From the NCBI GenBank assembly GCA_035532215.1, contig DATKRK010000416.1:13183-77182 (forward strand): 64,000 nt of DNA. The letters are read 5' to 3'. The position numbers and the translations under genes are program-made. The notes below the pieces were generated by a model. It made no database searches, was not told the DNA's origin, and saw nothing but the letters and a program-made list of their open reading frames with translations. Positions 1-47,842 of the stretch are shown piece after piece. Origin of the DNA: Pirellulales bacterium. GTDB taxonomy: Bacteria > Planctomycetota > Planctomycetia > Pirellulales > JAICIG01. The stretch's first letter is position 1. Each line of letters starts with the position of its first letter.

Positions 1-2184
1 CCGGTGACGGTGAACGGCTTCAATGGCACGAAGCCGGCTTCGACGGTCTACGTGAACGGCAGTTCCGGCAACGACAACATCTACGCCGACTATCGCACGA
101 TCTCGCTGGACGCCAATCCGGCCGATCGCATCCAAGCCGGCGTTCCGTTCACCCATTTGGGATCCGACATCACCTATTCCGGCGTGGCCGCCTTGAATCT
201 CGCCGGGATGGGCGGCGACAACACATTTACCATCCAAGTTCCGCCGACCTTGAATGCCCCGTTCGTGAGCAACGTTCTGCCCGCCACGGTCGTGGTTTAC
301 GGAAGCAACAGCCCGCTCTCGTTGCCTGTCGCCAACGGAACGAACTTGTTGCGAGTGCTCGGCAACGATCCGAGCACCAACAGCACCGGCGCCGACACCA
401 TCGCCGTCGGCGATTTCGGCACGGATCCGATCCAAATGGTGAACATCTCTGGACTGGTGATCTACGGGTATGGGGGCAACAACACCTTGACCAATGATTC
501 CGTCGGCATCCCGCTGCAAGGCATTCCTCCGGTGCCGGCCGTGCTGATCGGCGGCTCGGGCAACGACTCGCTGACCGGCGGCGCCGGCGGCGACGTGTTG
601 TTGGGCGGCGCCGGCATGAACACGTTGACCGACAAGTCCACGGCCGGCTACACGGCGTACCTTTTGGCGCATCAGGACCAGAACGGCAATATCTACGATC
701 CGTACTTGCAGTCGCCCATTCCACCCACGGACAACACGCTTTCGACGATTACGACCGGCGCCGGCAACGACGTCGTGGTGACGGGCGCCCGGCAGCAGAT
801 CATCTACGGCGATCCGGGCGACATCGACAACTTCAAAGCCGCGACTTCGACGACCGGCATCTTGCAGCAGTTCGCGACGGTCGATCCGCAGAATTTGACG
901 AGCTCCTTGTACGAAGTCACGCCGGCCTTGTTGGCGCTGGAACAGGCGTTTGGGATCAGCAACGGACAGTTTCCGCCCAATGAAGCGGCCGTGCTGGAAT
1001 TCGGCGCGAACAAAAACTTGCGATCTCAGTTCGCTACGTTCGGCGCCTTCGTGGGCCGCGCCTATGCCGACTACATGGTCGACCGCAAGGGCGGCTTGGG
1101 AACTTCAGGCGTCGTCAGCACCGATGAAATCAATTTCTGGGTCGGGCTGGCGCAGCAGGGGGTAACCGTACAACAGGTGCAAGCCACCTTGTTGGCCTCC
1201 GACGAGTTGCGACAGACCGAGCGGCTCACGAACGCCTGGTTCCGCGGCATGTACGAAACGGTGCTCGGGCGACTGCCGACGCCTGCCGAAATCAACGCCT
1301 ACCTCACGCCGCTGGAAATTAACGACACGTCCGCGACGCGATATCAAGCCGCGATACAGTTGCTCACGAGCACCGACGGCACGCTGGCCGAAATCAACGA
1401 GATGTACGCCAATCTCGTGCCGAAGGGCTCGCCCTCGCAGCTCGACGAGCAGGCGATCCTGATCGACCTGGCCTCCGGCATGCGACTGGAACAAGTGGCG
1501 CAAATCATCTCCGCCAGCAACGGAGACTACTTCAACTACGCGGTTTCCCACAACGCCGGGGAAGTCGGCTTCATCGGCGGGCTGTACGAGAGCGTACTGG
1601 GGCGATCGGCCTCGAGCGCCGACCTCGCCACGTGGGGCCAGTTTCACGCCGAAGGCGTCAGCAACGAACAGATCGCCCTGGCCATTTTGACTTCGCCCGA
1701 GCACCGGTCGCACATCATCGCGGGCTATTACGAGACGTACTTGCACCGCGGCGTCGACGCGGGGGGCCTTAACTTCTGGCTCAGCGTGATGGCGGCAGGG
1801 GCTACCGAAGAACAAGTCCTGGGCTCGATCGTCGGCTCCGAGGAGTATTACCTCGAACACGGCGGCACGTCGGATTCGTACATCCGCGCCCTCTATAAGG
1901 ACGTCCTGTTGCGGCCCACGGCGCCATCTCAAGCGGAGGTCGACGGTTGGATTGCCACGTTGGCTGCATCCTCTCGCGGCGCGGCCCAAGCCCGCGCCGA
2001 CGTGGTCGTCGGCTTCGCCACCAGCGACGAGTTCCGCTCGAGGGAGATCAACGGCTGGTACGAGGCTTACCTGGGACGGCCCGCGACCGCAACCGAGATC
2101 GACGTTTGGCTGAATACGTTCCATTTGGGCGCCAGCCAGGACGCCGTGCAAGCGCAGATCTTGCTCAACCGGGCGTCCTTCTAG
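1..2184 (+). CDS. C-terminal part (5'-truncated by the window edge) of a large secreted repeat protein with an RTX-like Gly/Asp stretch and several DUF4214-type repeats
   Basis: Frame 1 is open from nt 1 to TAG 2182-2184 (ORF track 4..2184). GGSGNDSLTGGAGGDVLLGGAGMNTL resembles hemolysin-type Ca-binding nonapeptides. Repeated units such as WFRGMYETVLGRLPTPAEINAY, FIGGLYESVLGRSASSADLATW, YIRALYKDVLLRPTAPSQAEVDGW and INGWYEAYLGRPATATEIDVW match the DUF4214 signature. The same signature ends both downstream giants. Confidence 0.8.
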   Translation, partial: PVTVNGFNGTKPASTVYVNGSSGNDNIYADYRTISLDANPADRIQAGVPFTHLGSDITYSGVAALNLAGMGGDNTFTIQVPPTLNAPFVSNVLPATVVVYGSNSPLSLPVANGTNLLRVLGNDPSTNSTGADTIAVGDFGTDPIQMVNISGLVIYGYGGNNTLTNDSVGIPLQGIPPVPAVLIGGSGNDSLTGGAGGDVLLGGAGMNTLTDKSTAGYTAYLLAHQDQNGNIYDPYLQSPIPPTDNTLSTITTGAGNDVVVTGARQQIIYGDPGDIDNFKAATSTTGILQQFATVDPQNLTSSLYEVTPALLALEQAFGISNGQFPPNEAAVLEFGANKNLRSQFATFGAFVGRAYADYMVDRKGGLGTSGVVSTDEINFWVGLAQQGVTVQQVQATLLASDELRQTERLTNAWFRGMYETVLGRLPTPAEINAYLTPLEINDTSATRYQAAIQLLTSTDGTLAEINEMYANLVPKGSPSQLDEQAILIDLASGMRLEQVAQIISASNGDYFNYAVSHNAGEVGFIGGLYESVLGRSASSADLATWGQFHAEGVSNEQIALAILTSPEHRSHIIAGYYETYLHRGVDAGGLNFWLSVMAAGATEEQVLGSIVGSEEYYLEHGGTSDSYIRALYKDVLLRPTAPSQAEVDGWIATLAASSRGAAQARADVVVGFATSDEFRSREINGWYEAYLGRPATATEIDVWLNTFHLGASQDAVQAQILLNRASF

Positions 2185-2452: not shown

Positions 2453-5400
2453 ATGGGGATGTGGAGCTCATGGCGCCCTATCCAGAATCCCGAGCAGGAT
2501 CGCAATCGACGACGCGGCGCTCGCAGACGCGGACGGGCCGCCCGGCCGTTGGTCGGACGAGAGATGCTGTTGGAGCAATTCGAACAGCGCTTGATGCTGA
2601 CCGGTCCGCAATTGATTTCGATCATTCCGGACGCCGGCGGTTTGCTCTTGCCCGGCGACACTTTGAACGTCGCTCCCAAGGAACTGACGTTTAATTTCGA
2701 CCAGAATCAGACCATCAACGCGGGAACTCTGGCCGGCATCGAACTGGTGCGCAGCGGCGGCGACGGCACGTTCGGCAACAGCAACGACGTGCAAATCACT
2801 CCGGGATTCATCGGCATCGGCACGCAGCCCAATACGGTCGTGATGCGCTTCAGCACGTCGCTGCCCGACGACCTGTACCAGATTACGATCGTCGGCTCCG
2901 GACCGAATGCGCTGACCAACGCCTCCCAAGAGGCGTTCAACAACGGGGTCAACGAGAGCCAGGAATTCCGCTTGAACCTTGGCCCGCAGGTGCTGGCCGT
3001 CGTGCCGCAGCCAATCAGCCTGCCGGATCCGACGACGGGCGTGCGAACGCAAGCCGCGAACGAAATCGACGTCTACTTCAATCAGCGCTTGCAAGAGTGG
3101 GCCGGACATCCGGGCCAACTCGATCCCGCCTTGTTCCAGTTGATCGCGACCAAGAACACGGCGACCACCGCCGACGATACGGTCTACGTGCTCGATCCGA
3201 ACGTGTCGACGTCGACGCCCGCGGTCTTCGCTGACGGCACGACGCACGTGGCCGGGCAGGTTTACTATAACGCCGCGAACAACGAAGCGAGGTTGGTGTT
3301 CGGGCAAACGTCATCCGTGCCGGGCGCCATAAACCTGAATACGCTGGGCACGGGCTCTTTCCGGTTGCGGTTCGGCAACAGCGACCAGCCGCAGCAAGCT
3401 CCGCTGGTCGTTCCCGTGCCGCCCTCGCCCGACAATCCTTCGACGCCGGGCGGAACCGGCCCGGGCGACACCTTTTCCACGTCGATGGCCACCGGCGCCT
3501 TGGGCGACGGACAAACCAAGCTTTTCGACTCGTCGATCGCGCCCATGTCGGTCAACGCGGGATTGTTGTTCCCAGGCGGCGATTCGGCGCCGGGTACGCA
3601 GAACATCGCCGATCCGACCAGCATTTCCGGCTTGGCGGCCTGGATCACTTCGCAAGGCATCCAAAACCACTTGATCGACGGCCGCTATACGTCGCCGGGC
3701 GGCGTAACGACGATTCCCTATAACTTCCAGGACATTTACGGCTCCGACGTCAACGGCAACCTGCTGCACAATCAGATCAGCACCACGCAGGAGCAGGATG
3801 TCCGCGATATCTTCAGCTTGTTCTCCTACTACAGCGGCGTGAATTTCGTGGAAACGCCGCACGACGGCATCACCTTCGCGGTGGGCGATATTCGCGCCGT
3901 GGCGCCGTCGGATCCGGCGACTTCGGTGAACGGGATCGAAGGCCCCACCAAAACGGCGCCCTTCGTGGCCATCGTCAACGGCAACGTCAATTGGGGCCAG
4001 AGCGAATACGGCGGCGCGTTCTTCGCCGTGGCCATGCACGAGATCGGCCATGCGCTGGGGCTGGGCAATTCCTACGATTTACCGGCGCCCAACGCAATGG
4101 GCTATACCGGAGTGACGGGCGGAGGCGAAGATCCCAATCAGCCGACCCAGCCGGCCAACCAGGTCGGCACGGCCGAACCTGCGCTGCCCGGCGCCGGCGA
4201 CATCTCCGCATTGCAGTATCTGTACAGCACTGACAGCAAAGACGTCGATCTCTACAAGTTCACGCTGACGCAACAAGGCGTGCTCAACGCCCAAACGATC
4301 GCCCAGCAACTGACGCCCACCAGCAGTCTCAACACCGTCCTGACGCTGTACAACGAACTGACCTTGTTGGGCTTGCCCGCCAACGGCGGACAAGGCGTCA
4401 GCGACGGCCAGACGTTCTCCATCACCAGCACGAATCCCGGCGGCGTGACTGCGACGACGCAAACGTTCGAGTTCAACAGCGGGTTGTCGCTCACGCTGCC
4501 CGCCGGCGGGGTCGTAGACGGGCGAACCTTCTCGCTCAGCGACGGCACGCACACCGTGCGATTCGAATTTGCCGTCAATGGTCGTCAGTTATCGCCCGGA
4601 GACACGAACACGCCGATCGACTACAACGCCAACGACTCGCTCGACACGATCGCCGGCGACGTCGTGCAAGCCATCAATTCGGCCGTCAAGAACGCCGGGC
4701 TCGGCGTCACCGCCCAAGGCTCGCAAACCATCGACGCAACCTACAGCGGCAGCGGCGCGATCAACATCGGCGGCGACGCCAACACGACGTTCAGCGCGCA
4801 AAATGCGGGCTTGACGATCAGCGGAAACGTGAACGTGCAGGCCGGGCACATCCTCGTTCGTTATGCGCCTGCCGACACGCAGCACGATCTGGCGATCGCC
4901 ATCGCCAACGCCATTACCGGCGCCGCCGTGTCGCTCGGCAACCCGAACGGATTGAACGTCTCCGCAACGGCGGAACTCAACCAGGTGCAATTGCAAGGCC
5001 CGATCAGCCTGGACATCAGCGGCTCGCCGACGTTGACGTCCTCGATCCAGCGCTCGATCATTTCGCGCAACGACGATTTCATCGGCACGGACTCGCTGAT
5101 CAACCTGAACCTGACGCCGGGCGTGTATTACATCGGCGTGAGCAGTTCGGGAAATACGAACTACGACCCCAACATCACCGACAGCGGCTGGGGCGGCGCC
5201 AGCAACGGCATGTACGAACTGCGGCTGAACTTCCAGGCCACGCCTTCGACTCCGACGAATCCGGCGAAGGCCAGCTTGGACAGCTACGTCGCGCCGGTCG
5301 ATACCGGGCTCAATGCGCTCGGCCAGGACGCTCCGCAGCCTCTCGACGGCGACGCCAACGGCACGCCGGGCGGAACCTACAACTTCTGGTTCAACGTCAC

Positions 5401-8400
5401 CAATCCGACCAGTACGATCTACGTCGACAAGACGCCGCCCAAGCCGGGAGATATCAGCGGACCGCTGGGCTCGCTTACGAATCCGTTCACGACGATTCAA
5501 GCCGCCTTGAATTCCGGCCTGCTGGTTGCCGGAACGAACTTGCGGATCGAAGGCAACGAAGGCGCCAGCTTCGTACTGCCGCTCTCGGCGAAGCCGTTTG
5601 CCGTGGGACAGCAGTTTACGGTGAGCGCGGGCACGGTCAGCGCCGTGTTCGAATTCACCAGCAGCGGCGCCGCCGCCAACGGCCAGTTGCTGCCCGACGG
5701 CAACTATGCCGTCGCCTTGCCCGCAACCTACACTCCGCTCGGCGCCGCCTTCGCCGTTCAAAACGCCATTCAAAACGTGTTCCCGAGCTCGTCGCCGCAG
5801 GGGGACGCCAGCGGCGACATCCAGGTCGCGCTATCGAGCGACTCCGCGAACGAGTACGTCAACCTGACCGGCAAGCTGCGAATTACGCTGGGCATCGATC
5901 CGCCGCCGGCGACCGCCTTGTCGACCCAGCCCCACGCGGCGGGCGGAACCGACCTGGTCGTGCCGCTCGGCGCGGCGCCGATCGTGGCCGGCCAGACTTT
6001 CCAAATCGTCGCCGGAACGGTCACTGCAAAGTTCGAATTCGCCAGCGGCGCCGGGATCTCTCCCGGTCAGCTTCTGACCGACGGCAATTACGCGGTCGTG
6101 CTGCCGGCGACTTATTCGGCGCAGAACGTCGCCGCCGCGCTGCAGGCGGCGATTGCGGCTTCGCCGTTGTCAGGGGCGGCGGCGGGCAATGTCGTGGTCT
6201 CGGTCACCAACGATTTAACCAACTACTACGCGACGCTGACCGGCAGTCTGTCGATTTCAGTGACCGTGCTCTCGACGCCCGCCACGCCGATGTCGTTCAA
6301 GTACAGCGACGTGGCGTATCAAATCGGCGCCAACAACGCCGCCAACCAATTCCAGCCGCTGGCCGACGGCGCTACGTTCGACGTGCCGCGGGGCGTGACG
6401 GTGATGATCGATCCCGGCGCCGAGTTCAAGATGAGCAAGTCGATCATCGACGTCGGCAGTTCGGCTCAAGGCATCGATCGCAGCCAAGGCTCGTTGCAAG
6501 TTCTGGGCATTCCCGGCAACCAGGTGATTTTCACCTCGTTCGCCGACGATACCGTCGGCGGCCAAACCGAATTTCCCGACACGGCGCCGACCCGCGGCGA
6601 TTGGGGCGGGTTGGCGTTCCGCAACGACTCGGGGTTGGAGCCGCTGGGCATTTTCGTGAATTACGTCGACGAAGCCAATCTTCGCTACGGCGGCGGCCAG
6701 GTCTCCGTCAACGGCACGCCGTCGGTGTTCAACGCCGTCGACATGGAATCCGCCCGGCCGACGGTCACCAACAACATCATCGTCGACAGCGCGCAGGCGC
6801 CTATTTCCGCGACGCCCAACAGCTTCGAAAAAACTCAGTTCCAGCAGAACGTGCGGCTCACGGCCGCGGCCGGCAGCGCCATCGTGGACGGGCAGACGTT
6901 CCAAATTCACGGCGCCACTTTCGAGTTCATCAACGTCAATAACCCGCAGAACTCGGCCGGCAACGGCAAGTACAAGAGCCTGCCCGGCGTGGTCCAAGTC
7001 TTGTATCACAGCGGCTTTTCCGGCCCGACCGATACCGACGTGCAGGTGGCGTTGGAAATCGCCGAAGCCATCAACGGCGCGCAACAGCTTTCGCACCCCG
7101 CCGTCCAGGCGGCCGTGACGGGCAATCAAGTGACGATCACCAACGTGACGTCGGTCGATTCGCCGGTGGCGCTCGACGTGCCCTTCTCCGGCAGCCAATC
7201 GGGCTTGAACGGCGAGACGTTCGCTATCAAGGGCACGGTTTTCGAATTCTTCAGCGGCGATGCGTTTCAAGTTCCCGCCAACGGCGGCACGGGCATCGCC
7301 GACGGCGCCACGTTCACGATCACCCAAGGCGCCAACGCCGTCACCTTCGAGTTCGCAGCCAACGGCCGCACGCTGACCGACGGCCACGTGGCGATCGATT
7401 ACAACAACAATCCGGGCGCGACCGTTCCGCTGGTCGACACGATGGACACGCTGGCCCGCGAGGTCGTGCAGGCGATCAACGCGCAGGCCGCCGCCGGCGC
7501 GTTCGGCGCCGGCTCGCCCATCTCGGCGGCCTACAGCGGCAAGGGCGTGATCAGCATCGGCAGCAACGCCAGCACCAGCTACAGCCTAGGCGGCAGCGGC
7601 TTGACGCTGCTGGCGGGCGCCAACCAGGCGCCGTTGACCCCGAATAACGTGCTGGTTCACTTCAATCCGGCCGACACGTCGTTGGCTTTAGCCCAAGAAA
7701 TGGCCGCGGCGATCAATGCGGCGCAGATCGACGGCGGCACGGGCCAGCTCGTCTATGCCGAAGCGGTGCAGTCGGGCGCCACGGCGCGCGTCGACCTGAT
7801 GTACAGCTCCGACGTCAATCTCTCGGCGCCCGGCTCCGCCCCGCTCACGATGAGCCTGCTGACGCCGCTGACGATCAACACGGTCCCCGGCAGCCAATTG
7901 TCGGAGGGCGACACGTTCACGGTCAACGGCAAGACGTTCGAATTCGACAGCGGCTACACGCTAACCGTGCCGCAGAACCTGGCCCTGGCGGCGCCGCAGA
8001 GTTTCAGCATCAGCGATGGAACGAATACCATCGACTTCGATTTCAACGGCCCCTCGCCCGCCCGACAGGACCACGTGAACATCCCCTATTCGCCGGGCGA
8101 AACGCGCGATCAATTGGCGCAAGACATCGTCACGGCGATCAATAATTCGGGCCTCAAGGGCATCTTTGCCACGTGGCTCGGCTCTTTGGGGGGCCAATAC
8201 ACAGGCCAAGTGAACATCGGCGGCGTCGCCGCCAGCACCCTGCCCGGCGCGCCGGCCGCTACGCAGGTGAACACGAACGTCGTCTACGACAATTCGGCTC
8301 TCACGCGGAGCGGCTCGCCCGGTTTCACGGGCTTTACATCCGGCGACGTGTTGACCGTGCCGGATCTGAGCGCGGCGACGGGTTTGCGCAGCTTTCTGAT

Positions 8401-11400
8401 CAGCGACGGCACGAAGACCGTCACGTTCGATTTCAACGGCGCGCCCCAGGTCGGGCACGTGAACATTCCCTTTACGCCGGGGACCGACACGGCCGATACG
8501 ATCGCCCAGGCCATGGTCGCCGCCGTCAATGCCCAGAGCTTCTTCGGGGTCTACGCGACGTGGCTGGGGCAATTCGGCTCGGCGTACACGGGCCAGGTGA
8601 ATCTGGAAGGGGTCATCAAAGGCACGGCCAATTCGTTGCAGTATCCGGCCACGCTGGTCACGGCCAACACCGGCGGACCGCCCACGCCCACCACTCCCGC
8701 CTTGCAGCTCACCGGCCAGCCCGGCTTTACGGGCCTGACCGCCGGCTACGTTTTAAGCTTGCCCAGCACGCTCTCGCCGTCGGGCGTCGATAGCTTCGAA
8801 ATCAGCGACGGCGTGAAGGACGTTACTTTCGATTTCAACGGTCCGGCCCAGCCGGGACACGTCATCATCGCCTATACCAGCGGCGAGACCCCCGACCAAT
8901 TGGCCCAGGGCATCGTCACGGCCATCAATGCTCAGGGTTTCTTTGGCGTACACGCCACCTGGCTGGGCCAGTTCGGCACGTTGTACGCGGGCCAGATCAG
9001 CATCGAAGGCGTGGTAGCGGGCAGCGTGAACGGCAACGCCTATCCGGCCACGTCGGTCACCGCCGATATTCCGGCCGCCGTCGGCGACCCGCTGATTCTT
9101 TCCGGGCAGCCCGGCGCCGATCACACCGGCGGCATTCCGGCGCCCTTCGTGCCGACCGACAGCGCCTCGACGATCGCCAGCGAAATCGGGGCGGCCGTCA
9201 GCGGTTCGGGCCTCGATGTTTCGGCGAACTCCAACACGGCCGGCGCCGGCACGGTGACGTTCCAAAACGTCGACTCGCTGGTTCCCAGCCCGCTCGTGAT
9301 GCAGCCCTCGCCCGAGCCGATCGCGTATCAACTGCAAAACGTGTTTTCGTTCGGCGCCGACACATTGCCGCTGGCGGTGTCCAACGACATTTTCACGGCC
9401 GACTATCAACGCATCGGCCCCGAGGTCCACGGCAACGTGCTGGCTTTGCCGCAACCCAAAGTGCTCTCGATCGGTTCCCCAGGGCAGGTGCAGGACGGGC
9501 AGCAGTTCGTCATCAATAACCTGGGCTTCGAATTCGACAACAACAACACGACGACGGCGGGCTACCATGCGGTGTCGTTCACCGCGGCCCAGTTGGCGGC
9601 GCCCAATGCGCTCGATTTGCTGGCCGAAGACGTGGCGGCGGCGATCAACGCGGCCAGCAATCCGGCGAGCCCGCAATATGTGCAGGGCTTCAACGTCACC
9701 GCCACGATCGGCTCATTGGGCTCGGGCCAGGTGATTCTGTCGTCGAACGCGGCCAACGCGGCGGTCGTTACGAACGGCGCACCGCTGTCGATCAAGCAGT
9801 CGATCGTGGAGAACACGATCAACGGCCTGTTCGTGAACATCCGCACCAACTTGGGCAAGTCGATCGATACGCTGGACGTATCGGCGGAGTTCAACGCCAC
9901 CGACATCCCGTACGTCATTACCTCGAATTTGGAAATCACCGGCGAGACGGGCGGGCCGCTGGGCACGACCGGCCGCGAAAGCGCCCGGCTGCAGGTCGAT
10001 CCGGGCGTGGTGGTCAAGATGCTCGGTTCGCGGATCGAAGTCGGCATGGGCGCCAACTTCGTGGCCGAGGCCGACCAGAACCATCGCGTGATCTTCACGT
10101 CGCTGTTCGACGACACGTTCGGCGGGGGCGGCACGTTCTACACCAACGGCGACGATCAGAATCCCACCCCGCCGCAAGCCGCGGCCCCCGGCGATTGGGG
10201 CGGCATTTATTTCTCGCCCACTTCCAAGGGCAGCATCGACCACGCGCTGATCACCTACGCCGGCGGCTCGATTCCGATCGAGGGCGGGTTCGACAGCTTC
10301 AACGCCATCGAAATTCATCAGGCCCAGGTTCGCATCACGAACTCTTCGTTGCTGAGCAACGCCAGCGGCAAGTCCTCGGGAACGCGCAACGGCCGCGGCG
10401 CCAACGACGCGGCCGTGATCTACGTGATCGACGCGCAGCCCGTGCTCGTGAACAACATCGTGCAGAACAACCAGGGCGCCGCGATCAGCGTCAACGTGAA
10501 CTCGCTGAACAATGCGCTCACGCCGGACTGGGGTCGCAGCACAGGCGTCATCGACAGCTTCACGCAGTTCGCCGACAACTACGGCCCGCTGGTGCGGCTC
10601 AACAAGCTGGGCAATAACTCCATCAACGGCATGCTGGTTCGCGGCGGCACGCTCAACACGGCTTCGATCTGGGACGACACCGACATCGTCCACGTCGTGG
10701 AAAGCGAGATCGACACCACGAATTACGCCACCAACGGCGGTTTGCGGCTGCAAAGCAACTCGACGCAAAGCCTGGTGGTCAAGCTGCTGGGCGCCAGCGC
10801 CGGCTTCACCGCCACGGGAGTCGCCTCGAACATCACCGATCGGATCGGCGGCACGCTGCAAATCATCGGCACGGCCGGACATCCGGTGGTCTTGACTTCG
10901 CTGTACGACAACAACGTCGGCGCCGGCCTGACGCCGGGCGACCGGCCCGACAACGTCACGCTCAACGGCAATACCACGAAGCCTTCGCCGGGCGATTGGA
11001 ACTCGGTCCTGTTCGACCAGTACGCCAACGACAACAACGTCGCGGTCATCAACGAGGCCGAAAGCACGTTTACCGGCGGACAAGGCACGGACAATACGCC
11101 GGGCGCCGCGCAAAACCTCGGCGCGCTGGCGCCCAATCTGAAAAGCGGCGACGACAAACAACGGCTGGGCTACGTCGTTCACGGCTTCATCAGTCCGGAC
11201 GACACTCACGACATGGACGTCTACAGCTTTTCCGCGGCGCCCGGCACGCAGGTCTGGCTCGATTTGGGCAACACTTCGATGGCGCTCGACGCCGTGCTGG
11301 AATTGGTCGATGCCAACGGCAACGTGCTCGCCCGCAGCGACAACTCGGTGCTCGAACAAGAGGACGCGATCCAGGCGGGTAATCCGCTCGTGGCCGGCCC

Positions 11401-14400
11401 GCTGTTGAGCGGCTTGATTCCGGGCGGCACGAACCTGGCTCAGCCGATGCAGAGCACCACGTTCCAGAGCAACGTGTATCCCGCGTCCAACGTGCACGAT
11501 TTCGGCTCGATCAATCCGCGCGATCCGGGCATGCGGGTCGTTCTGCCCGGCGGGCCGCTGCAGCAGGGTCAGTCGAATCCGACGTATTACGTGCGGGTTT
11601 ACAGCCGCGGCCCGAACTCGAATCCCTACGTCAATTCGCCGGCGCCCGGCCAATCGGCGCCTGCCGAGAGCAACGGGCTCACGAGCGGCGCCTACGACCT
11701 GCAAGTCCGTTTGCAAGAGACGACGCAGGTCGCCGGCTCGGTCGTGCGGTTTGCTTCGATCAACTACGCCAAAGACGGCATCACCGTGCTCGGCCAGCCG
11801 GATCACTCGCCGTTGGCCGGGCAATCCGTTTCGAGCGGCTCCAATAACGTGACGATTACGGTGCCGCCCTCGCCGTTCGGCTCGACCGACCCGACCTACT
11901 TCCCCGGTCAAGCCAACGGTCCGGCTGCCGCGCAGAACCTGGGCGACCTGCTCACGACCGACACCAGTTCGCTGAGCGTCGGCGGAAATCTGACCGATCC
12001 CGGCCAGGTCGATTGGTACTCGTTCACGCTGAACTACGACTTGATGCAGGCGATCCAGCACGTCAACGGCGCCGACAAGACGTTCTCTACGATTTTCGAC
12101 ATTGGCTATGCCGACGGGTTGACGCGGCCCGATACGACGCTTTCGGTGTTCAACCAATACGGTCAATTGATCCTCAGCGGCCGCGATTCGAACATTTCCG
12201 ACCAGCAGCCGCAGCCGGGAGCGGGCGCCGACACGTCGAACCTCAGCCACGGCTCGTTCGGCACGCTCGATTCGTACATCGGCTCGGCGCAGTTGCCGAC
12301 CGGCTACGCGAATGGAACCACGCCCGGCTCGCTCGCCGGGCAGAATCCCGTTGGGTTGAACAGCTACACCTACTACGTCGCGGTCAGTTCCAATGCGACC
12401 TTGCCGACGGCGATGGACGCGACGTTCAACGCCAACAGCGCCAATCCGCTGGTGCGTCTGGAACCGCTCGAAGGTTTCAAGCGAATTGTCGAAGATCACA
12501 TCGGCTTTACCGGCTACACCAGCGGCAACGCGCTGTTCAACAGCGGCAACCTCACCTCGGGCAACCAGTCTTCGGGCAACACGATGGCCCCCCAAGACGG
12601 CGCGCTGCTGCCGATTCAGACCGTGGCCGATTTGCAGCAGCACGTCGTGCCGTACACGCTCGACAACGTCGTCGGCTACGCGGTCACCGACAATCATCTT
12701 TACACGATCAATCCCGCCACCGGTCAGCAGGAAACGGACGTCTCAGCCTTGGCGACCGACCAGCCGCCCAACGGAGTCTGGAAAGACATCTCGATCCGCA
12801 ACGACGGCAAGATGTTCGGCTATCGCACCGCGTACGATACCACCGGCAACTCGGGTTATTTCTACCAAATCGATCCAGGCACCGGAGCGCAGACGCTGCT
12901 CGGCGGCGACGGCGCCGCGGGCAAATGGGGCTTGAGCAAGGAAGTCGACTCCATGGTCTGGACGGGAGACGGCTTCAACAACTCGTACAAATTATTTTTT
13001 TCGATCAGGGCGGCTAACGGAATTTCGGCGCTGGTGCGGGCCAATCCGGACACGGGCGACACGACCCAGACGCCGCCATACGGGTTGTACGGCTACATGG
13101 AGACGGGGCTGCAAAACGGCATCAAGATCGAATCGCTGGCTGCGCAGGACGCCAACAAAAACCCCCAGATCTTCGAAGGCCAATCGTTCCAGCTCACCGA
13201 TCTGGCCGGGCGCACGATTACCTTCGTGTTTCACAACACGGCCAACCCGCCGCTGCCGCCGCCGCCGGCCGGCGCCGCGTATATCGACTTCGCCAGCGGC
13301 GACAGCGCGGACACGGTTGGCATGGAAATCGACTCTGCGATCAATCAGGCTTTCTTTGCGTTAGGCGCCCCGGTCAATCCCCCGGCAAACTACAAGCCGT
13401 TGACGGCCAACTATTCGTTTGCCGGCACGGCCAAACCGATCCAGCCGGGAGAGGTCGACGTCAACAACGTGGCCTCGGAAGACTTTTCGAACGCCTCGCA
13501 ATTCAACGTCACTTCGACCGGCGTCGGCGGTTACATCACCGGCATGGCTTTGGATCCCACCACCGGCGAAATCTATTGCGTGAGTTCCAACGGCGGCGTC
13601 TACGTGATGGATGGCCCCAATCCGGGCAGCATGCGGTACTTGGGTGCTTCGCAAGTTTTCACCAAAGCCGGCTATTCGTTCACCGGTTTGAACGTCGGTC
13701 CCCAAGACTTGGATTGGAATGGCGACGGCACGCCGGGCGACCTGCGCCATGTGTTGATCGCCAGCGCCGACGTCGCCGGCGGCGGCAGCGTCTTGACGGC
13801 CATCTCGATGGACGATCTGGCGGCGGGCAATATCTTCAATTCGCAGCCTATCCAGGCCGGCGCGCCGGTGGCCATCTTCGACGTGCCGGGCGTCGACCAG
13901 AACGGCTTGAGCGGACCGACGGGCTCGTACACCGACAATACGCCGCTGGCCGAGACGGGCGCGACCGGGATCGCCCTGTCGCCGCTGGACTTCAATCTCT
14001 GGCACCCGACCTTCACGCGTTGGGCCGATCCGGGCCACGGCATCCCCAACACCTATTCCAACAGCCGCGTCGGCGGCTTCCCCACTTCGGTCACCAGCGG
14101 CGACGTCAACTTCAGCACGAACGGATCGGCGGGCGGCGAAGTGGCCGGCGGCGTAAGCTTCTACTTCGGCATGGACAACTACATGCCGGAGCCCGCGAAC
14201 TATTTCGGCTACAACGGCATCGACGCCCAGTACGGCGTGCTCGACACGAATACGCAGAAGAATCTGACCTATCAAACGAATTCGGCCGCAAGTCCGGTGA
14301 TCCGCCAGACGTACAATCTGCCGGGCGGCGCCGACGGCATCCTGGAAACGAACGGATTCAGCCTGGCGGGCTACTCGTCGGCCGACAAGCCGACGTTGTA

Positions 14401-17400
14401 CTTCAACTATTACCTCGACACGAACAACAACAATACCAAGGGCGTGACGCCGGGATTTAACGACTTCACCCAGGCAGCGCGGGTCTACGCTTCGGCCGAC
14501 GGCGGCAAGACCTGGCAGTTGATGGCCACGAACGACGCGACACGGACGTACTACGACACCAACACGAACATCACGGGTCAATTGGGCGAATTGCCGCAGT
14601 TCGCCACCGCTTCGGCCGACGTGCCGGCCACCACGCTCAACGGCCAGCCGGTCGTCGATCCGCGGCAGCAGACGCAGCAACTGTTCAACAGCACGGGCAC
14701 GTGGCGGCAGGCCCGCATCGACTTGGGCAATTTCGCCGGTCAACAGAACATCTTGCTGCGGTTCGATTTCCACACCTCGGGCAGTTCCGACATCTACTCG
14801 TCGTACAATCCCCAGTTCGTGCAGGGCGATCAATACGGCAATCCGACCAAACCGACCCGCGCGCAGAACCTGCAGCACGAAGGGTTTTACATCGACGACA
14901 TCATCGTGGGTCTGGCCGAGCGCGGCGAGCAAGTGACCAACAGTCCGGCGGGTCAGACGCAATTCTTCACTACGCCGCAGAACCCCAATTTCGGCGCTCC
15001 GACCGAAACGCTGACGGGCCAGTACCAATTGCAGATTCGCCCGGGCCAGGCGACGGGCCAGACGATCAATCCCAACAACAGCGCGATCGAGCTCAATCCC
15101 AATCAGTTCGACGTGAACGATCGTCTGACCTCGGGATACACGTTGGTTGCCCCCGAAGGACACTTCAACCAGTCGATTACCAAGACGTTGCCGTCCTTCA
15201 ATCTCGCCACGCAAGCCTACTCCGTGCCGACCCAGACGTACACCTTCCAAAACTTGCCGACGCCGACGGGCGGCGGCACGCTCACGATCAGCGGCGTCGG
15301 CGACCTGGAAGGCATTCTGGAATATCTCAAGCTCGACGGCATCGGCGACGTTTCGGTCACGCAAAACGTGTTCTTCAGCCAGGCGCAGGCCGACAAGGCC
15401 CAGCAGGGGCAATTCATCACCAGCACGCAGATTCACCTGTCGCAGGCGCAACTGCTCAAGCTGCTCGCCGCGGGCGGCGGCAACTCGATTCAGTTCAACT
15501 TGACCCCGCAAACTCCGATCGACGGCGCCAACACCAACAATCTCGACCTCAACAACACGAATCCGGCTACCCAAGTCAACAGCCTGCTGCAGTTGAACGT
15601 GACGCTCGACTACGCGTCGGCGCCTTACGACGGGCAGACGTTCACCATCAGCGACGGCGTGAACCAGGCGGTGTTCGAACTCGACGACAACAATTCGCTG
15701 GTCAATCCCAGCGACATCCGCGTCGCTTTCGATCCCACGTTCACGGCCGCTCAATTGGCCCAAGCGATGGCGGCGGCGATCAATCAGCAGACGCTGCTCA
15801 AGGTCACGGCCAGCACTGCGGACGCTGCGGGCAACAACGCCGCGTCCAACACCAACGATACCAACGACCGCGTGAACCTGTTCGGCGCGGCGTGGGTGCA
15901 GGTCGGCATGCCGCAGGTCACGGTCAGCGGGGCCGGGGCCGCGTCGCCGCCGCCCAATACGATCGGCAACGCGTTCAAGACGACGCTCGACTCGGCCGCT
16001 TCCAGCGGAAACCGCGCGTTCAACGGCTACGGCGAGTTGGGCAACGCCGCCGGCACGTCGGGCATCAGCAATCCAAGAGACGTGAACCTGTACCAGGTTC
16101 ACTTGAACGCTGGCGACGCTTTGACCGTGCAGCTCAACTCGGGCAGCATTTTGTCGTCGCTGCAGCCCTACTTGCGAATTTTCGACGCGGCCGGCAACGA
16201 GGTGGGAAATTCGAGCACGCTCACGCAATTGCCCACGTTGCCCGACGGCAGCGGCTTTCCGCCGAACGCCTTCGTGGCTCCCGATCCGTACTACACGTTC
16301 ACGGCGCAGAGCACAGGCGACTATTACATCGGGGTCAGCGGGGCGGGCAACCTGCTCTACGATCCGACGAAGCCGCCTGCGGCCTGGACCGCCACGACGC
16401 CGAATCCGGCGGGCAGCACGGGCTACTACCAGATTCACATCAGCGTCGGGTCCATCAACGTCCGCGGCGTCGTGCCGCCGGCCACGCCCTCGTTCTCGTT
16501 CTTCCCGCCCAATTACGAACCGGGCCAGCCGGTCAACGAGGGCACGCTGTCGTACCAAGGCCAGTTGCAATTGCCGACGAGCACCGGCAACCCGTACACT
16601 GGCGACCCGAACATCGGCGACGACGGCACGATCCGCGTGCTCAAGTACGATTACACCGGCGACGCGCAGGTGGTCGCGCCGCAAGGCTCGTTGATTCTGG
16701 AAAGCAACCAAATCACCAATTCGAGCGACGTCGGCATCCTGGTCAGCTCCGCGCCGCGCGAAGGGCTCCTCGGGCAGCCGAACCCGAATCTGCCGCACCA
16801 AGGCGGCGTGGTCAATACGCCGGTGCTGAACAGCGCGCGGCTCGTGCCGGGCGTGGTCGTCGAGAACAATCTCGTCACCAACTTCGGCAACGCGGGCATC
16901 CAGTTCAGCGGCGACACCAACCCGGCCGGCGCCCCGCTGGCGGCAGTTCCCTTCGGGCGACTCATCAACAACACGGTCTACGGCGGCTTGCAGGCCACCG
17001 GGAAGGTCGGCATTTTGGTGTCCAACAACGCCAGCCCGACCGTCGTCAATAACATCGTGGCGAACACGCAGTTGGGCATTTCCGTCGACGCTTCGTCGCA
17101 GGCTCTGCCGAGCCCGCCCGTGCTGGGCGCCAATCTGTTTAGCGGCAACGCCAAAAACACCAACCTGGGCAATCCGGCACAGTACCCCAACGGCGATCCG
17201 GGCAGCAACGGCATCGTGCTGACCGCCGGCCAGCCGCTGTTCACCAATCCGGCCTTGGGCAACTTCTATCTGAAGGAGTATTCGCCCGCCATCGACAGCT
17301 CGCTCAACTCTTTGGTCGATCGGCCGCAGATGACCGCGGTGACGGGTCCGCTGGGCATTTCGCCTTCGCCGATCCTGGCCCCGGACACGGACATGAACGG

Positions 17401-20400
17401 TCAATTGCGCGTGGACGATCCGTTCGTGGCCTCGCCGCCAGGGCTCGGCTCGAACGTGTTCAAGGACCGTGGCGCGATCGAACGCGCCGACTTGACCGGA
17501 CCGCAAGCCAGTTTGCTGAGCCCGGTCGACAACAACATCCAAGATCAAGATCCGCGAGTCAACATCGTCCACCCGGTCGGCGAGTTGCTCTCTGAATTCC
17601 AAATTCAATTGAACGATGGCGTCGGTTCGGGCATCGACAATTCGACCGTGACGCCGGACCGCGTCACGGTGCGGCGCAACGGCGTGCTGCTCACGCAGGG
17701 GGTCGACTACTCGTTCGTCTACGACAATAACAACCACATCATCCGCTTGATTGCAGCCTCGGGGGTGTGGCAAAACGGCTACGTCTACGACATCGCCCTC
17801 GACAACGGCGTCCATTTCGACCCGCAGGCCGCCGATACCAGCGGCACGCCGCTGGGCATCAAGGACCTGGCCGGCAATTTCCTGCAAGCCGACTTTCCCA
17901 ACGGCTTCACGACCTTCCAACTGATTCTCGACAGCGTGCAGAACGATCCGCCGGCGGTCACCTTGCCGCTGACCGCTCAAACGGTCGCCGAGAATTCGCC
18001 GGGCAGTCCCTACAGCCCGGCGGCGCCCAGTTCCTTGGCCTTCGATACCGCCAACCAGAATACGATTACGGTTTACGATGTCGACGCCAACGGCGGCGTC
18101 GAGCAAATCACCGTCTCGACGGCCCAAGGCACGCTGGCCATCGGCGGCTCGCTGCCGGGCATCAATATCTTGAACTCGAGCAACGGGACAAGCACGTTGC
18201 AATTCCAGGGCACGGTCGACGCACTGAATGCTGCGCTCGATACGCTGGTTTACACGCCCGCGCCGTACTTCAACGGCCAGGCGACGATCCAGATCGTGGC
18301 CAACGACCTGGGCAATTCTCCGCCGCCGGCGAAGTTGACGACCGTGTTCATTCCGGTAACCGTGACGCCCGTCAACAACGCGCCGGTCATCACCATGCCG
18401 GCTACGCAGTCGGTCACCGAGGACAACCCGTTGGTCTTCTCGAGCTCGGGCGGAAATCCGATCTCGGTCTTCGATGTGGACGTGCAAGGCGCCGATACGA
18501 GCAATCCGAGCTATCTCTACACGGAAGAAGTCCGGCTCGACAACTTGCCGGCGATCGCGGGCAACAACAATCTGCCGCAGATCGTGTTAGGAACCACGTC
18601 GGGCATCACCTTCCTGGCGCCGCCCGCCGGCGGGGCCGTGACCGCCAACGGATCGACCGATATTTGGTTCCGCGGCACGCTCTCGGCGATCAACACCGCG
18701 CTCAACGGGCTGAAATTCATTCCGCCGGCCGAAGACTCGACGGCCGAGCCGGGCCTGTATCCCAATCCTTTCTCGTTGACGCTTGTCACGAACGACAACG
18801 GCAACATCGGCGCCGGGGTTCCGCAAATCGTGACGCAGAGCGTTTCGATCACGGTCAACCCGGTGATCGATGCGCCGACCCTCGACAACAGCCAGACGAT
18901 GACGCTCTCGCCGCTGACCGAGAGTTTGACGTCGCCGACTCCCGCCCAGGTTTCGGCGGCCATCTCCGCGGCGGGAGGAAGCAACACCGTGGCCTCGGTG
19001 CTCGCCACCGGCGCCGACGGCGGCTCGCCGATCACGATCAACACGCTCACTTCCGGCGGACAACTCGGGATCGCGATCACCGATGCGACCGAAACCGATC
19101 CGACTCGGGGGACGTGGTATTACTCGGTCGACGCGGGCGCGACTTGGAAGTCGTTCGGCACGGCGGCCACCGACTTCGGCGCGGCGTCGATGAGCCATGC
19201 CCTGTTGTTACGCGCGACGGATCTCGTCGAGTACGTGCCGGCGGCGAATTTCAATACCAACGGCACGCTCGATCCGCTTCCCACGCTGACGTTCACGGCC
19301 TGGGATCAGACCACCGCCGTGGAACCGGCCCAATTGCAGATTCTGCCTTTGGCGCCGGGCTCGGCCGCCAATCTGACTCAAATCGGCCAAGGCGCCAGCA
19401 CGCCGTTCAGCGTCGCCAGCGGCACGGCCACGCTGTCGATCAGCGCGGTCGACAGTCCGCCGCACATCAGCCTGCCGTCGGGCGCCTTCATCACCAACGA
19501 AGACGTGGCGATTTCGTTCAGCGGGGCGAACGCCCCCGTCGTATCGGATCCGGATATCAACGAAGGAAATCTGGCCAACGTCGGCCAGGTCAGCCTCACG
19601 GTTTCAGTCAATCCGGCGCAGGGTACGTTGTCGCTCGGCCCCTCCGTTCCCGGCACGGTGCAAATCATCAACGGCGGGAACGGCCAAAGCAGCATCGCCA
19701 TTCAAGGGCTGATGGCCGACGTCAACACGGCGATCAACGGTTTGAAGTTCACGCCGGCGCTCTATTTCGCCAGCCAGGCCACGGTCAATTTGGTCGTCAA
19801 CGACTTGGGGAACTTCGGCGTCTTGCCGCCGGGCTATCCCAGCGCCAACGGCGGCTTGATCGATACGGAAACGTTGACCATCGACGTGACGCCGGTCCAT
19901 TTCGCTCCGGTGCTCGACAGCAACAACGGCGCCCCGACCTTCGCCTCGGTCGTGCAAAACACGCCGCCGGCGAACAACACCGGCAGTACCGTGGGCGCGA
20001 TGTTGCTGACGGGCGGCTCGATCGTGTCCGACGTCGATCCGGCGGGTTCCTTCCTGGCGATCGACGCCGACGCGGGGGCCAAGCAGGGGATCGCCGTGAC
20101 CGGACTGACGACTGCCAGCGGCGGCATTTGGTACTATTCCACCAACGGCGGCGCCAGCTTCAGTCTGGTTGGCGCGGTTTCGCCGTCGAACGCCTTGTTG
20201 CTGCGTTCCACCGATCTGGTTCGCTTCCTGCCCAACCAGAACTTCACCGGCAACGTGACCATGACCTTCCAGGCCTGGGACCAAACGGATCAGGCGGCGG
20301 CAGGCAGTCGAGTGAATTTGACGACGGCCGGCGCGACGGGCGGCAAGACCGCTTACAGCACCGCCAGCGCCACCGCGACGCTCAGCGTCACGCCGATTCC

Positions 20401-23213: not shown

Positions 23214-26200
23214 ATGGGGATGTGGCGTTCGCTTCACCCTTTCCATTCGTCCACGCCGAAACCCAGCCGACGCAGCAGCGTCAAGCGATCGAGCCGACGT
23301 CGCGCGCTCAAGCGCCGCGAGACGAATGCTTCGCGCGCAGGCCGGCGAGAACTGCAACTCGAACGCTTCGAAGAGCGTTTGCTGCTGACGGCTGCACCCC
23401 AGTTGTTGTCGATCCTGACCAACAGCAACGACGTGGTTTTTGCTCCCAACGCCGCCACGCAGCCGTTGACCACGGCGCCTCAAGAGCTTGATTTGCTCTT
23501 CAACGAAGGACAGGTGATCGATCCGGCGACGCTCGGCGGCATCCAGATCGTGCGCGCGGGCGTCGACCACACGCTGAACACCGCCGACGACGCGCCGATT
23601 CAGCCCGGTTACGTCGGCATCGGCTCGATTCCCAACGAGGTCGTGGTCCGGTTCGCTTCCACGCTTCCCGACGACCTCTATCAAATCACGCTGCTGGGTA
23701 CCGGTCCCGATGCGCTGACCAACAGCAGCAATCCGCCCGTTCCCTTTTCCAGCGGCAACTCGACGCAACCCAACCAGCGAATCGATTTTCAGATCGACAC
23801 GGCGCCACAGGTGCTGTCGGTCGTCCCCGAACCGATCACGCGCAATTCCGACGGCAGCCTGTCTCAGGCGACGGATACGATCGACGTTTATTTCAACAAG
23901 CCGATCCAACCGCTGCCGACGACGATCAATCAGCTCGATCCGCACCTGTTCCAACTGGTCGCCACGCAAAACACGGCCGATCCCACGGACGACCAGGTCT
24001 ACACGCCGAACAACGTCAGCTTCGACCTTTCGACGAACATGGCGCAGCTCACGTTCGCTGCGCCGATCAGTTCCTTGAGCACCGGCTCGTTCCGCTTGCG
24101 AATCGGCGATAATCAGCCCGTGGCCACCGGCAGCAATGCGGCGCCGGTCACCGTTCCGATTACGGTCGGCTCGGCCGGTTCGACTTTCGGCGACGCGAAC
24201 ACGCTGACGCAAGATCCCGGACCCTATAACGTCGGCGATTTGAACGCCGTGTCGCACCAACTGTTGACGGGCGGCGTGATCGGGCCGGTCAGCGATTTGC
24301 CGGCGACGGCGACGCCGGGCGGAAATCTCGGCCCCGGGCTGAGCGGCATCCCGATCGACAACCACGTCGACCCCAACGCAGCGCAGCCCAGCGGGCAAAC
24401 GCATTACGTGCCGACGATCACCTACAATTTTCCCGACATCTACGGCAGCGTTCCCGGCAATCCGCAACTGCACAACGTCATCACGCCGGCGCAACAGCAG
24501 TTGACGCGGGAGATCTTCCAGCTTTACAGCTACTATTACGGCGTGCAGTTCCAGGAGGTCGGCAGTGCGACGCTGGGCGCCGCCGAATTGGGCGTCGTCA
24601 CCGGCGTGGTGCAGTCGCTCGACCAGTCGGCCCCCGTCGGTTTGACCGGCATCGCTCAGGCGCCCGCGACTCCTTTCCCAGTCACGCCTTTGGCCTCGCG
24701 CGGCGAAGCGTTGGCCGTGATGAACGCGGGTATCTTCAACACGGAAAGCCAATACGGCGGGCCGTGGTTCATGGAAGCCCTGCGTCAGATCGGGATCATG
24801 CTCGGGCTGACGAACGTCAACGGCGCGCCGCCGGGAACGGTGATGGGCGCGGGCGGCAACGACCCGGCCACGAATGCGCCGGCGGAGCCGGTGTTCCCCG
24901 GCAACGCCGACATTCTGCACGGCCGGTACTTGTACCAGCCGGACAGCAACGCCATCAACATGTACAAGTTCACCGTCACGACGCCCGGCGCGTTCAGCGC
25001 CGAGACGATCGCCCAGCGTCTGACCGACGCCAGCGGCGCGCCGGATACGAGCCTGCTGAACACCGTCTTGACGCTGTACAACGAGACGCACGTCATTCAA
25101 CTGCCCACCACGGGCGCCAATCCGGTCGGCTCGGCGATCGTGCCGGGCAGTTCGTTTACGCTCAACGACGGAACATCCCCGGCGGTCACGTTCGCGTTCG
25201 ACAACGGCATAACGCCGATCCCCGCGGGCGCCGTATCGATTCCTTTCACGGCGTCGCAGACCGCGCACGACGTGGCGTTGTCGCTGGCCCAAGCGATCAA
25301 CGGTTACCTGACGACCCACAGTCTGAACGTCTCGGCCAACGTCGAATTCGATCGCGTGGTGCTCAGCGGGCCCTTGACGGTTACGCACAGCGCGTCGCAG
25401 GGTTCGGTCGCCTACAGCGTCGACCGCGAGATCGTCTCGCGCAACGACGACTATTTCGGAACCGATTCGTACCTCAAGCTGCAGCTTGCGCCGGGCAATT
25501 ATTACGTGGCGGTGACCAGCACCGGCAACGCCAATTTCAACCCCAACGTGCCGGACAGCGGCGCCGGCGGCACGACGACGGGCGCGTACAACCTGCGGCT
25601 CGATTTCACGCCCACGCCCGTCAGCACGCTGACCGACGACGGCCTGTCGTTGATCGTGCCCAACGTGCCCCTCGGCGGACAAGGGGGCATTCAAAACCTC
25701 GACAAGTTCACTATTTCTACCGATAGCAACACCTCCGTGACGTTCCAGTTCGTCACGCAGGGTTCGACGCCGCAGACGGGCGTCACTGCCATTCTGGTGT
25801 CGCCCGGCGCCACGCAGGACCAGGTGGCGCAGGCCGTGGCGACGGCGATCGCCAATTCCGGCTTGACGACGCTGACCCTGCGCTACGACGGCCACGGCCA
25901 GGTGAACCTGGGCGGTTCGGCGACGACGACAATCACGACGTCCACGAGCGCCTTGGCCGTGTGGGGCACGGCGACTCGACACGTGCTCGAGGGCAATTCC
26001 GACGGCGCCAGCGGCGCTTACAATTTCTGGTTCGCCTCGAACGACGCCAGCACGATCTACGTCGATAAGCTGTCGGCGGCTACGGCCGATCCGACTTTGG
26101 GAACGATCGGCAATCCCTACAATACAATTGCCGGCGCCTTGCAAGCCGCGTCGGATCGCATCATTGCGCCGACGGGCGCCGCCTTGGCGACCGCGACGCC

Positions 26201-46977: not shown

Positions 46978-47106
46978 CGCGGCGGCAGTTTGGTATGTTA
47001 GGCGTATCGTTCACCTCCAGTGCCCCTGCGAGGCGGGCGGTGCCGTGCCCGCGAACGCTGCGCCGTTGACTTCTCAGACGGTTCGACAGAGTGTATAGAG
47101 GGATTC

Positions 47107-47292
47107 GTGATCGTCCATTATGATGGCTTCATTATTCTGTTGATTGTTCTTATGGGGCTTGTTCCGATTTGCCGCGGTGGTAAGTGGAATTGGAAGGTCG
47201 TTCAGCGCGGCAAGGCCCTCAGTGCTGTGTTCTGGTTTGGGTGGTTCTCGGCGCTCCTCGTCAGCCTGCTGAGGTTATGTGGCCTGATCTAA
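47107..47292 (+). CDS. possible small hydrophobic protein
   Basis: A GTG-started ORF, VIVHYDGFIILLIVLMGLVPICRGG...AVFWFGWFSALLVSLLRLCGLI, with two hydrophobic stretches in an apparently lower-GC patch. It has no clear RBS and no recognisable family. Confidence 0.25.
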   Translation: MIVHYDGFIILLIVLMGLVPICRGGKWNWKVVQRGKALSAVFWFGWFSALLVSLLRLCGLI

Positions 47293-47351
47293 CACTACAG
47301 CGATAACGTGAAGCGTTTTATCGTGTCGTCGCAATAGCGGAGTCTCGTTCG

Positions 47352-47835: not shown

Positions 47836-47842
47836 GTGCTAC

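Follow-up and report, generated by a model that had tools for sequence, protein, structure and literature searches.

A repeated, apparently self-nesting domain in giant proteins of Pirellulales and in tail-sheath proteins of uncultured phages

Background

Giant genes are a hallmark of the Planctomycetota, and much of their sequence is without domain annotation. Domain-in-domain insertion is known in the RTX adhesins, which have 'split' extender domains with a ligand-binding domain inserted in them, and the axial proteins of flagella are also built through it. The sheath protein of phage Milano, gp20, consists of three nested domains, the SHD containing the SBD and the SBD containing the SED; the last of these, the external sheath extension domain, comprises residues 91–203 and is nested in the body domain (PMC10811340). 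Giant genes mostly encode surface proteins or polyketide synthase/non-ribosomal peptide synthetase (PKS/NRPS) enzymes (PMC5177795). Here we consider a repeated unit, the TFEF module, in two adjacent giant open reading frames (ORFs), g1 and g2, on the + strand of a 64,000-nucleotide stretch of DNA from a Pirellulales bacterium (GenBank assembly GCA_035532215.1, contig DATKRK010000416.1, positions 13,183 to 77,182), hereafter the window. The module is probably an unmodelled, insertion-competent and self-nesting extracellular domain of ~95 residues that serves as scaffold or decoration.

2453..22696, + strand: g1, giant ORF of 6747 amino acids (aa); TFEF modules plus other domains
23214..41426, + strand: g2, giant ORF of 6070 aa; nine complete TFEF modules

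The TFEF repeat in g1 and g2

A first-pass annotation of this DNA listed 14 copies of the unit in g1, each marked by a four-residue core. Each of the 14 cores is in the first reading frame of the g1 ORF (frame 1); in order, they read TFEF, RFEF, VFEF, KFEF, TFEF, VFEF, TFEF, TFEF, DFDF, TFDF, TFDF, GFEF, TFVF and VFEL. Every core is real, but as a count of copies the figure needs amending: there are 11 contiguous modules and three hairpin-only halves (cores at nt 4463, 7238 and 7934). The cluster was also said to end at nt 9560, which is too early, since its last module reaches nt 9754; the remark that the unit makes up a large share of the N-terminal third of g1 holds good, modules accounting for 1194 of the 1799 residues (66%) between aa 636 and 2434.

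A seed hidden Markov model (HMM) made from 11 copies in g1, with g2 kept out, found nine further copies in g2 at independent E-values (iE) of 1e-9 to 1e-20. A second HMM, M2, was made from 178 modules that all come from unrelated database proteins and none from the window. It recovers 11 complete modules in g1 (iE 1e-12 to 1e-25, 33–76 bits) and nine in g2 (iE 3.5e-13 to 9.5e-25), together with five of the six split pieces of g1: two of the three hairpin-only pieces, at aa 642–684 (iE 6.5e-6) and aa 1809–1848 (iE 7.6e-5), and three pieces that comprise the C-half only (iE 1e-5 to 1.6e-10). The remaining hairpin, at aa 1575–1606, is placed by its in-frame core at nt 7238 and by the splice test described below. 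Fifty locally shuffled versions of g1, and g1 reversed, score no higher than 3.0 bits, and a six-frame scan of the window found no TFEF module outside g1 and g2. The repeat is real, far beyond chance. Identity between window copies has a pairwise median of 27% and a maximum of 56%, and the copies are old and diverged. Recent tandem duplication at the DNA level was rejected on the strength of that median, and an artefact of composition or low complexity on the strength of the shuffles and of the confident predicted fold. The pieces and modules, all on the + strand, are as follows.

4376..4489, +: outer module A, N-terminal hairpin only; aa 642–679, core TFEF at nt 4463; M2 hmm 2–30, iE 6.5e-6
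4490..4783, +: complete module inside A; aa 680–777; iE 1.8e-21
4784..5005, +: outer module A, return connector and C-half (beta3-alpha-beta4-beta5); aa 778–851; M2 hmm 32–92, iE 1.8e-10
5576..5881, +: complete module; aa 1042–1143; iE 3.5e-12
5960..6268, +: complete module; aa 1170–1272; iE 3.4e-16
6857..7171, +: complete module; aa 1469–1573; iE 3.7e-13
7175..7270, +: outer module B, hairpin only; aa 1575–1606, core VFEF at nt 7238; aligns with other nested blocks
7271..7573, +: complete module inside B; aa 1607–1707; iE 1e-21
7583..7828, +: outer module B, connector and C-half; aa 1711–1792; M2 hmm 32–89, iE 1.6e-10
7868..7960, +: outer module C, hairpin only; aa 1806–1836, core TFEF at nt 7934; M2 hmm 4–40, iE 7.6e-5
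7961..8233, +: complete module, first of three in C; aa 1837–1927; iE 6.2e-19
8234–8350, +: connector of ~40 aa before the second module in C
8351..8620, +: complete module, second of three in C; aa 1967–2056; iE 5.2e-16; 51–56% identical to both neighbours
8753..9019, +: complete module, third of three in C; aa 2101–2189; iE 1.6e-14
9101..9283, +: outer module C, C-half; aa 2217–2277; M2 hmm 36–78, iE 1e-5
9464..9754, +: complete module; aa 2338–2434; iE 1.9e-13
13148..13474, +: isolated complete module; aa 3566–3674; iE 2.2e-13
15599..15895, +: isolated complete module; aa 4383–4481; iE 1.5e-25
25113–25376, 25665–25949, 26166–26438, 26559–26849 and 27549–27893, +: complete modules 1–5 of g2
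27909–28193, 28209–28478, 33804–34046 and 34047–34361, +: complete modules 6–9 of g2

Modules within modules

The three hairpin-only pieces (N) of g1 are each followed by complete modules (F), one in two cases and three in the other, and then by a piece (C) that matches M2 only from position 32 onwards, so that the C-halves missing from the hairpins are found 100–400 aa downstream. When N and C of block A were spliced together (4376..4489 + 4784..5005), they gave a single match over hmm 2–92 with E 2.6e-18; those of block B (7175..7270 + 7583..7828) did the same over hmm 10–89 with E 5.9e-13. The order of pieces in this part of g1, NFC-FF-FFCNFFFC-F, is retained at orthologous loci.

The same arrangement recurs in a census of 151 database proteins, which contain 1086 full modules, 191 N pieces and 174 C pieces. 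The break falls at one place: 71 of the 191 N pieces end at model position 31 and 96 of the 174 C pieces start at positions 32–33, in each case the most frequent choice. Within 40 residues after an N piece the next piece is a full module 157 times out of 191 and another N 19 times, but never a C. Stack-matching yields 107 N..C pairs, most of which enclose one module (54 pairs), three (20) or five (19). Sixteen N-F-C blocks from different proteins can be aligned over their full length at 24–40% identity, and the alignment includes connectors that have been kept along with the modules, 'FEFDSGYxLxVP' inbound and 'LTVxGxPG' outbound. With this alignment as input, AlphaFold2 (AF2) models g1 aa 636–860 with a mean predicted local distance difference test score (pLDDT) of 86.8 and a predicted TM-score (pTM) of 0.78; both outer pieces lie at pLDDT ~81–90, in the order strand-strand ... 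strand-helix-strand-strand, like one module, with extra connector strands beside the inner module. Taken together, the split pieces read as one module with another module, or several, inserted in the loop between its strands beta2 and beta3.

Conserved connectors of ~25–45 aa ('...LTxxGxPG...') follow each inserted module in g1 (8234–8350, 8621–8752 and 4784–4850, +) and recur in database proteins; judged from these sequences, the true repeat inside nested runs would be ~130 aa long, made up of an entry strand, the module and return strands. Some database proteins (e.g. P0015, P0027 and P0038) show the piece strings NNFCCCC and NNFCFCNFCFCC, which suggests nesting two or more levels deep. Runs that enclose one, three or five modules are commoner than those that enclose two or four; this may reflect a small number of conserved super-blocks, not independent events.

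Several results weigh against the nested reading. Splices between wrong partners score as well as true ones, and therefore the splice test shows only that an N and a C together make a whole module, not which N belongs to which C. Block C, the weakest of the three split modules of g1, has a C-half of only iE 1e-5, and its splice scores as two separate pieces. Only 107 of the 191 N pieces in the census were paired at the thresholds used, with the caveat that short pieces easily escape detection and that many of the database entries are fragmentary. Lastly, packing of the outer C-half against its hairpin is something that we infer from the lines of evidence for nesting given above, not something observed. 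If the hairpins and C-halves were remnants of decayed or truncated tandem repeats, and not halves of one domain, then the 84 N and 67 C pieces that were left unpaired, the weak C-half of block C and the packing not directly seen would all be in keeping. Remnants, though, should be disordered, with their ends scattered at random, and what we find instead is a sharp breakpoint shared among proteins, N and C pieces in near-equal number, an order that is always N, full module(s), C, confident modelling of both outer pieces, and whole N-F-C blocks kept as units, connector strands included, in 16 proteins. We consider decay a very improbable explanation, and prefer insertion of modules into modules.

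Fold and conserved residues

A single module (g1 aa 680–777), modelled by AF2 with the 20 window copies as alignment, gives a pLDDT of 89 and a pTM of 0.80, with no segment below 50. Its strands and helix run in the order beta1 (TFxI), beta2 (TFEF), beta3 (VxIxF/Y), a 19-residue helix ending A-I-N, beta4 and beta5. The model thus answers the question of autonomous folding that the first-pass annotation had left to structure prediction, being both compact and confident, and it completes the 'strands followed by an amphipathic helix' foreseen there: the order was right, but two more strands come after the helix. On this prediction the unit would be an independently folding domain of ~95 residues with the topology beta-beta-beta-alpha-beta-beta.

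A conservation profile of 581 database modules has its best-kept positions at D10, G11, F14, I16, D18, G19, F25, E26, F27 and D28, and, in the helix and C-terminal part, at A53, I56, A59, I60, N61, V87, L89 and G91; the A-I-N of the helix end is present at 85%, 72% and 52%, respectively. Mostly these are core hydrophobics and turn glycines, plus one strongly kept glutamate, much as would be expected for a structural module. E26 (88%), D10 (77%) and D28 (57%) are kept beyond what a pure spacer needs, a further point against a purely structural role, and they therefore leave room for metal or ligand binding. The module might, for instance, be rigidified by calcium, as the extenders of RTX adhesins are, or bind glycans, in place of acting as a passive scaffold. 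Acidic residues (D10, D18, E26, D28 and D30) are conserved at both ends of the hairpin, the open face of the sheet is predicted to be rich in Thr and Ser from the alternation of the sequence and the AF2 strands, and a neighbouring giant carries RTX repeats. Conserved surface aromatics of the carbohydrate-binding module (CBM) type were not seen, however, the conserved Phe alternating as core positions do, and the module matched no calcium-binding or CBM family in the Pfam scans. Binding of this kind seems to us rather unlikely; it is in any case compatible with a scaffold or decoration domain, and would refine that explanation, not replace it.

Relation to described families

The first-pass opinion that the unit belongs to no named family stands, for no model in Pfam or NCBIfam spans the whole of it. 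Scans of the entire g1 protein with Pfam-A and NCBIfam place nothing over the modules, and proteins that consist almost entirely of modules (e.g. one of 510 aa with six copies) match zero families in either collection. Models that do match g1 or g2 (Big_x, Cadherin_4/5, tandem-95 NF012211, PPC and FlgD_ig) do so elsewhere, and do not match the modules above noise. Nor did we find a description of the TFEF module in the literature on PF07196, the flagellin IN motif, or DUF4214 in Planctomycetes.

The only Pfam family that recurs when modules are scanned one by one is Flagellin_IN (PF07196), and always in the C-terminal half. It matches three of the 20 window copies, at best with 13 bits and E 0.12 against a gathering cut-off of 22.7 bits, and eight of 72 diverse database copies at E<=1, at best with E 3.4e-5; at the same threshold 17 of the 20 and 64 of the 72 have no match, and on g1 as a whole Pfam gives none. 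The Flagellin_IN motif, ~55 aa long, has a conserved I-N dipeptide at its centre, and the module's helix likewise ends in I-N. Profile searches of the PDB return marginal matches to three different phage tail-sheath proteins (E 0.036–0.073) and to FliD of H. pylori (6iwy, E 0.086), all of which cover only beta3-alpha-beta4. Alignment to FliD of E. coli by hhalign takes in 27 columns around '...IRDAINNAKAGVSASI...' at 4% probability. Foldseek searches of the PDB with the models of the single module and of the nested block gave nothing significant, which also tells against our interpretation, although the highest-ranking rows below significance repeatedly include FliD and tail-sheath entries.

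Could the unit then be merely a Flagellin_IN motif behind an unremarkable hairpin, and nothing new? The Flagellin_IN motif and the outer domains of FliD, like the TFEF module, have a helix ending A-I-N followed by two strands, the Pfam matches of the module range from sub-threshold to marginal, and FliD turns up in the lists from both sequence and fold searches. But the likeness covers only the C-half and most members lack it; the most conserved block, DGxTFxIxDG..TFEFD, sits outside the motif; and there is no flagellar context around TFEF, Pfam finding none of the terminal domains Flagellin_N/C and FliD_N/C in g1 or g2. We regard this explanation as improbable. We read the C-half as distantly related to an IN-like beta-alpha-beta-beta element, while the whole unit, with its signature hairpin, falls outside every Pfam and NCBIfam model tested.

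Distribution in bacteria and phages

When 1.84 billion cluster representatives were searched exhaustively with HMMER, 2091 matched at E<=1e-3; of these, 855 were at or below 1e-10 and 243 at or below 1e-30. Most of the best 150 have lengths of 2000–8000 aa, and a single protein can have as many as 23 matched stretches. A homologue search that works through a word index gave one match with alignment A1, none with a 225-aa block and none with alignment A4; evidently that index does not reach TFEF proteins. The names that matched proteins bear at NCBI derive from other domains (choice-of-anchor L, tandem-95, GEVED, PPC, Ig-like), or are simply 'hypothetical', and those sampled matches that have a named organism are all assigned to Pirellulales, Pirellulaceae, Planctomycetia or Planctomycetota. 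The partner domains, PPC, GEVED, cadherin-like, DUF4214 and beta-helix, are typical of extracellular proteins, and for this reason the giants are presumed to be extracellular.

Modules occur in phages, too. IMG/VR was sampled with a degenerate DNA pattern for DGxTFxIxDG; of the 116 loci drawn, 16 contain true modules by M2 (hmm 2–89, iE 1e-7 to 4e-21), with scores that far exceed what a 10-residue seed pattern could give. The carriers include tail sheaths of 878–1063 aa (phrog_23 E 7e-56 and 8.5e-48). The largest (L017, 1063 aa, phrog_23 E 7e-56) has both Phage_sheath_1 and Phage_sheath_1C above threshold and a module at aa 337–431 (iE 1e-19), and the 878-aa sheath is present at two loci, L009 (3814–6447, –) and L020. 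Another sheath-like ORF and a 1681-aa protein resembling a tail fibre or baseplate wedge also carry modules. In the 878-aa sheath, the significant module (aa 186–283) is preceded by two weak hairpin-like pieces and followed by two weak C-half-like ones; this N N F C C pattern, each weak piece of which is individually insignificant, hints at double nesting within a phage sheath. Among predicted viral structures (BFVD), Foldseek finds matches with probability 1.0 and TM-scores of 0.59–0.68; one is to a stretch, 33% identical, of an unnamed viral protein, and others are to proteins labelled 'baseplate J-like'. The module consensus and the nested block had no tblastn match in 50,697 deposited phage genomes, and viral occurrences so far come only from uncultured IMG/VR contigs and BFVD models.

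The extension domains of solved sheaths (Milano gp20 91–203 and the sheath of PhiTE) bear comparison with the TFEF module. They are of similar size (~100–110 aa), lie on the outside, are inserted in a loop of another domain, and have a nested architecture, as is proposed for TFEF. The three solved sheaths are matched in the extension region at the marginal E-values given above, in Milano gp20 at residues 121–168, inside the SED, and sheaths of uncultured phages hold complete TFEF modules. Yet the solved sheaths match weakly and in the C-half only, the TFEF signature is absent from their alignments, and Foldseek gives no confirmation. The viral relatives are insertions within a sheath-core protein; g1 has no sheath domains. 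In the giants, unlike the sheaths, the module is repeated 9–23 times and nested in itself.

Possible role

Unless we misread the evidence, the arrangement might work as follows. A unit of ~95 residues, comprising the beta1-beta2 hairpin DGxTFxIxDG...TFEFD, beta3, a long helix ending A-I-N, and beta4-beta5, is reused many times in giant proteins of Pirellulales that are presumably secreted or on the surface, and enlarged tail-sheath and tail-fibre-like proteins of phages contain it as an additional domain. With short connector strands on either side, a complete module would fit into the beta2-beta3 loop of another, such that a nested block begins with a lone hairpin, continues with between one and five complete modules, and closes with a lone C-half; three blocks of this kind, with eight plain modules, would form most of g1 aa 640–2434. 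The module would extend and stiffen the protein, provide a surface for contact or weak adhesion, and keep other parts of the giant (protease-like, PPC, beta-helix and cadherin-like) at a distance from the cell, by analogy with the external extension domains on tail sheaths and the outer domains on flagellar proteins. Because the module, a compact alpha/beta domain, seems both to tolerate placement in the loops of other domains and to host insertions in a loop of its own, because extra domains of this type lie on the outside of phage sheaths, and because modules make up the bulk of the giants' N-terminal third, it is most likely a non-catalytic, surface-exposed scaffold or decoration domain. 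Its extracellular location is presumed from the partner domains.

The extender repeats of giant adhesins (Ig-like, cadherin-like, tandem-95 and VCBS) resemble TFEF modules in being present as many diverged copies of ~100 aa in proteins of several thousand residues. They differ in being all-beta Ig sandwiches, where the TFEF module is alpha/beta with a long helix, and no extender model matches it. The split extenders of RTX adhesins differ in another way: the insert in a TFEF module belongs to the host's own family, and there are sometimes several in a row.

The locus

Besides TFEF modules, g1 has PPC, beta-helix and cadherin-like/tandem-95 domains and four C-terminal DUF4214 domains by Pfam and NCBIfam; stretches between the modules of aa 636–2434 are PPC-like and beta-helix-like. 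The modules form most of the N-terminal third, where they lie between a metzincin-like segment and PPC-like and beta-helix segments; the cadherin-like and DUF4214 parts follow only a long way downstream. Just 5' of the first TFEF block, at aa 529–537 (nt 4037–4063, +), is the motif HEIGHALGL, which is like those of metzincins and zinc metalloproteases and has weak matches to Peptidase_M10, Reprolysin_3 and M6 (E 0.003–0.09); g1 may contain a protease domain. The C-terminal end of g2 has a cadherin-like segment and four DUF4214 domains, as in g1, along with a Sortilin/BNR-like stretch, and g2 looks like a diverged paralogue of g1, directly downstream. Both proteins begin with 'MGMW' and an Arg-rich stretch (2453–2620 in g1, 23214–23390 in g2) and have an N-terminal motif in common, REMLLEQFEQRLMLTG in g1 and RELQLERFEERLLLTA in g2; this shared start may be an export or leader motif. 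A partial ORF that runs off the start of the window (4..2184, +) has C-terminal RTX calcium-binding repeats and three DUF4214 domains, and because it ends in this way, three giant-type genes seem to stand in tandem.

The genes 3' of the giants are of an ordinary chromosomal kind and encode M20 peptidases, a radical-SAM enzyme, seryl-tRNA synthetase (SerRS), UvrC, a ketoacyl synthase and a DUF1559 protein. Small genes of toxin–antitoxin type (Unstab_antitox, HicA_toxin and HicB-like) lie at ~47100–48050 (+), between the second M20 peptidase and serS; they were seen by way of a matching JGI contig (L124, 939–1890). Metagenome contigs at JGI and ENA contain the SerRS of the window. The nearest genomes are metagenome-assembled genomes (MAGs) of Pirellulales, with identities of 84%, 72% and 68% across the region queried. 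In one such MAG (L004, MFD05684.bin.2.6) the orthologous giant gene is broken across several reading frames; the breaks are likely to be frameshift errors, and the giant ORFs of such MAGs may therefore be under-called.

Significance

Repeated modules of ~100 residues are already familiar in giant surface proteins, and the C-half of this one echoes a known motif. New are a family of more than 2000 clusters that has no model in Pfam or NCBIfam, self-nesting at a fixed site, and use of the same module by phage sheaths and planctomycetal giants. A bolder proposal, which is plausible but which we hold only tentatively, is that TFEF is an undescribed self-nesting ('Russian-doll') family common to the sheath extension domains of phages and the surface giants of Planctomycetota, distantly tied to the flagellar IN motif, which has been exchanged between phage tails and giants and which builds branched, nested scaffolds by means of its own beta2-beta3 loop.

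With a TFEF model, ~1,200 residues of g1 could be annotated, and so could portions of the proteins in more than 2,000 clusters. Split, nested modules would also change the way that giants are parsed, since hairpin-only and half pieces would no longer be taken for debris. Nesting of a family within itself, at a fixed loop, would be an unusual form of protein growth and may interest engineers in search of scaffolds that tolerate insertions, and the occurrence of the module in phage tail sheaths would provide a structurally tractable handle on what it does at the surface.

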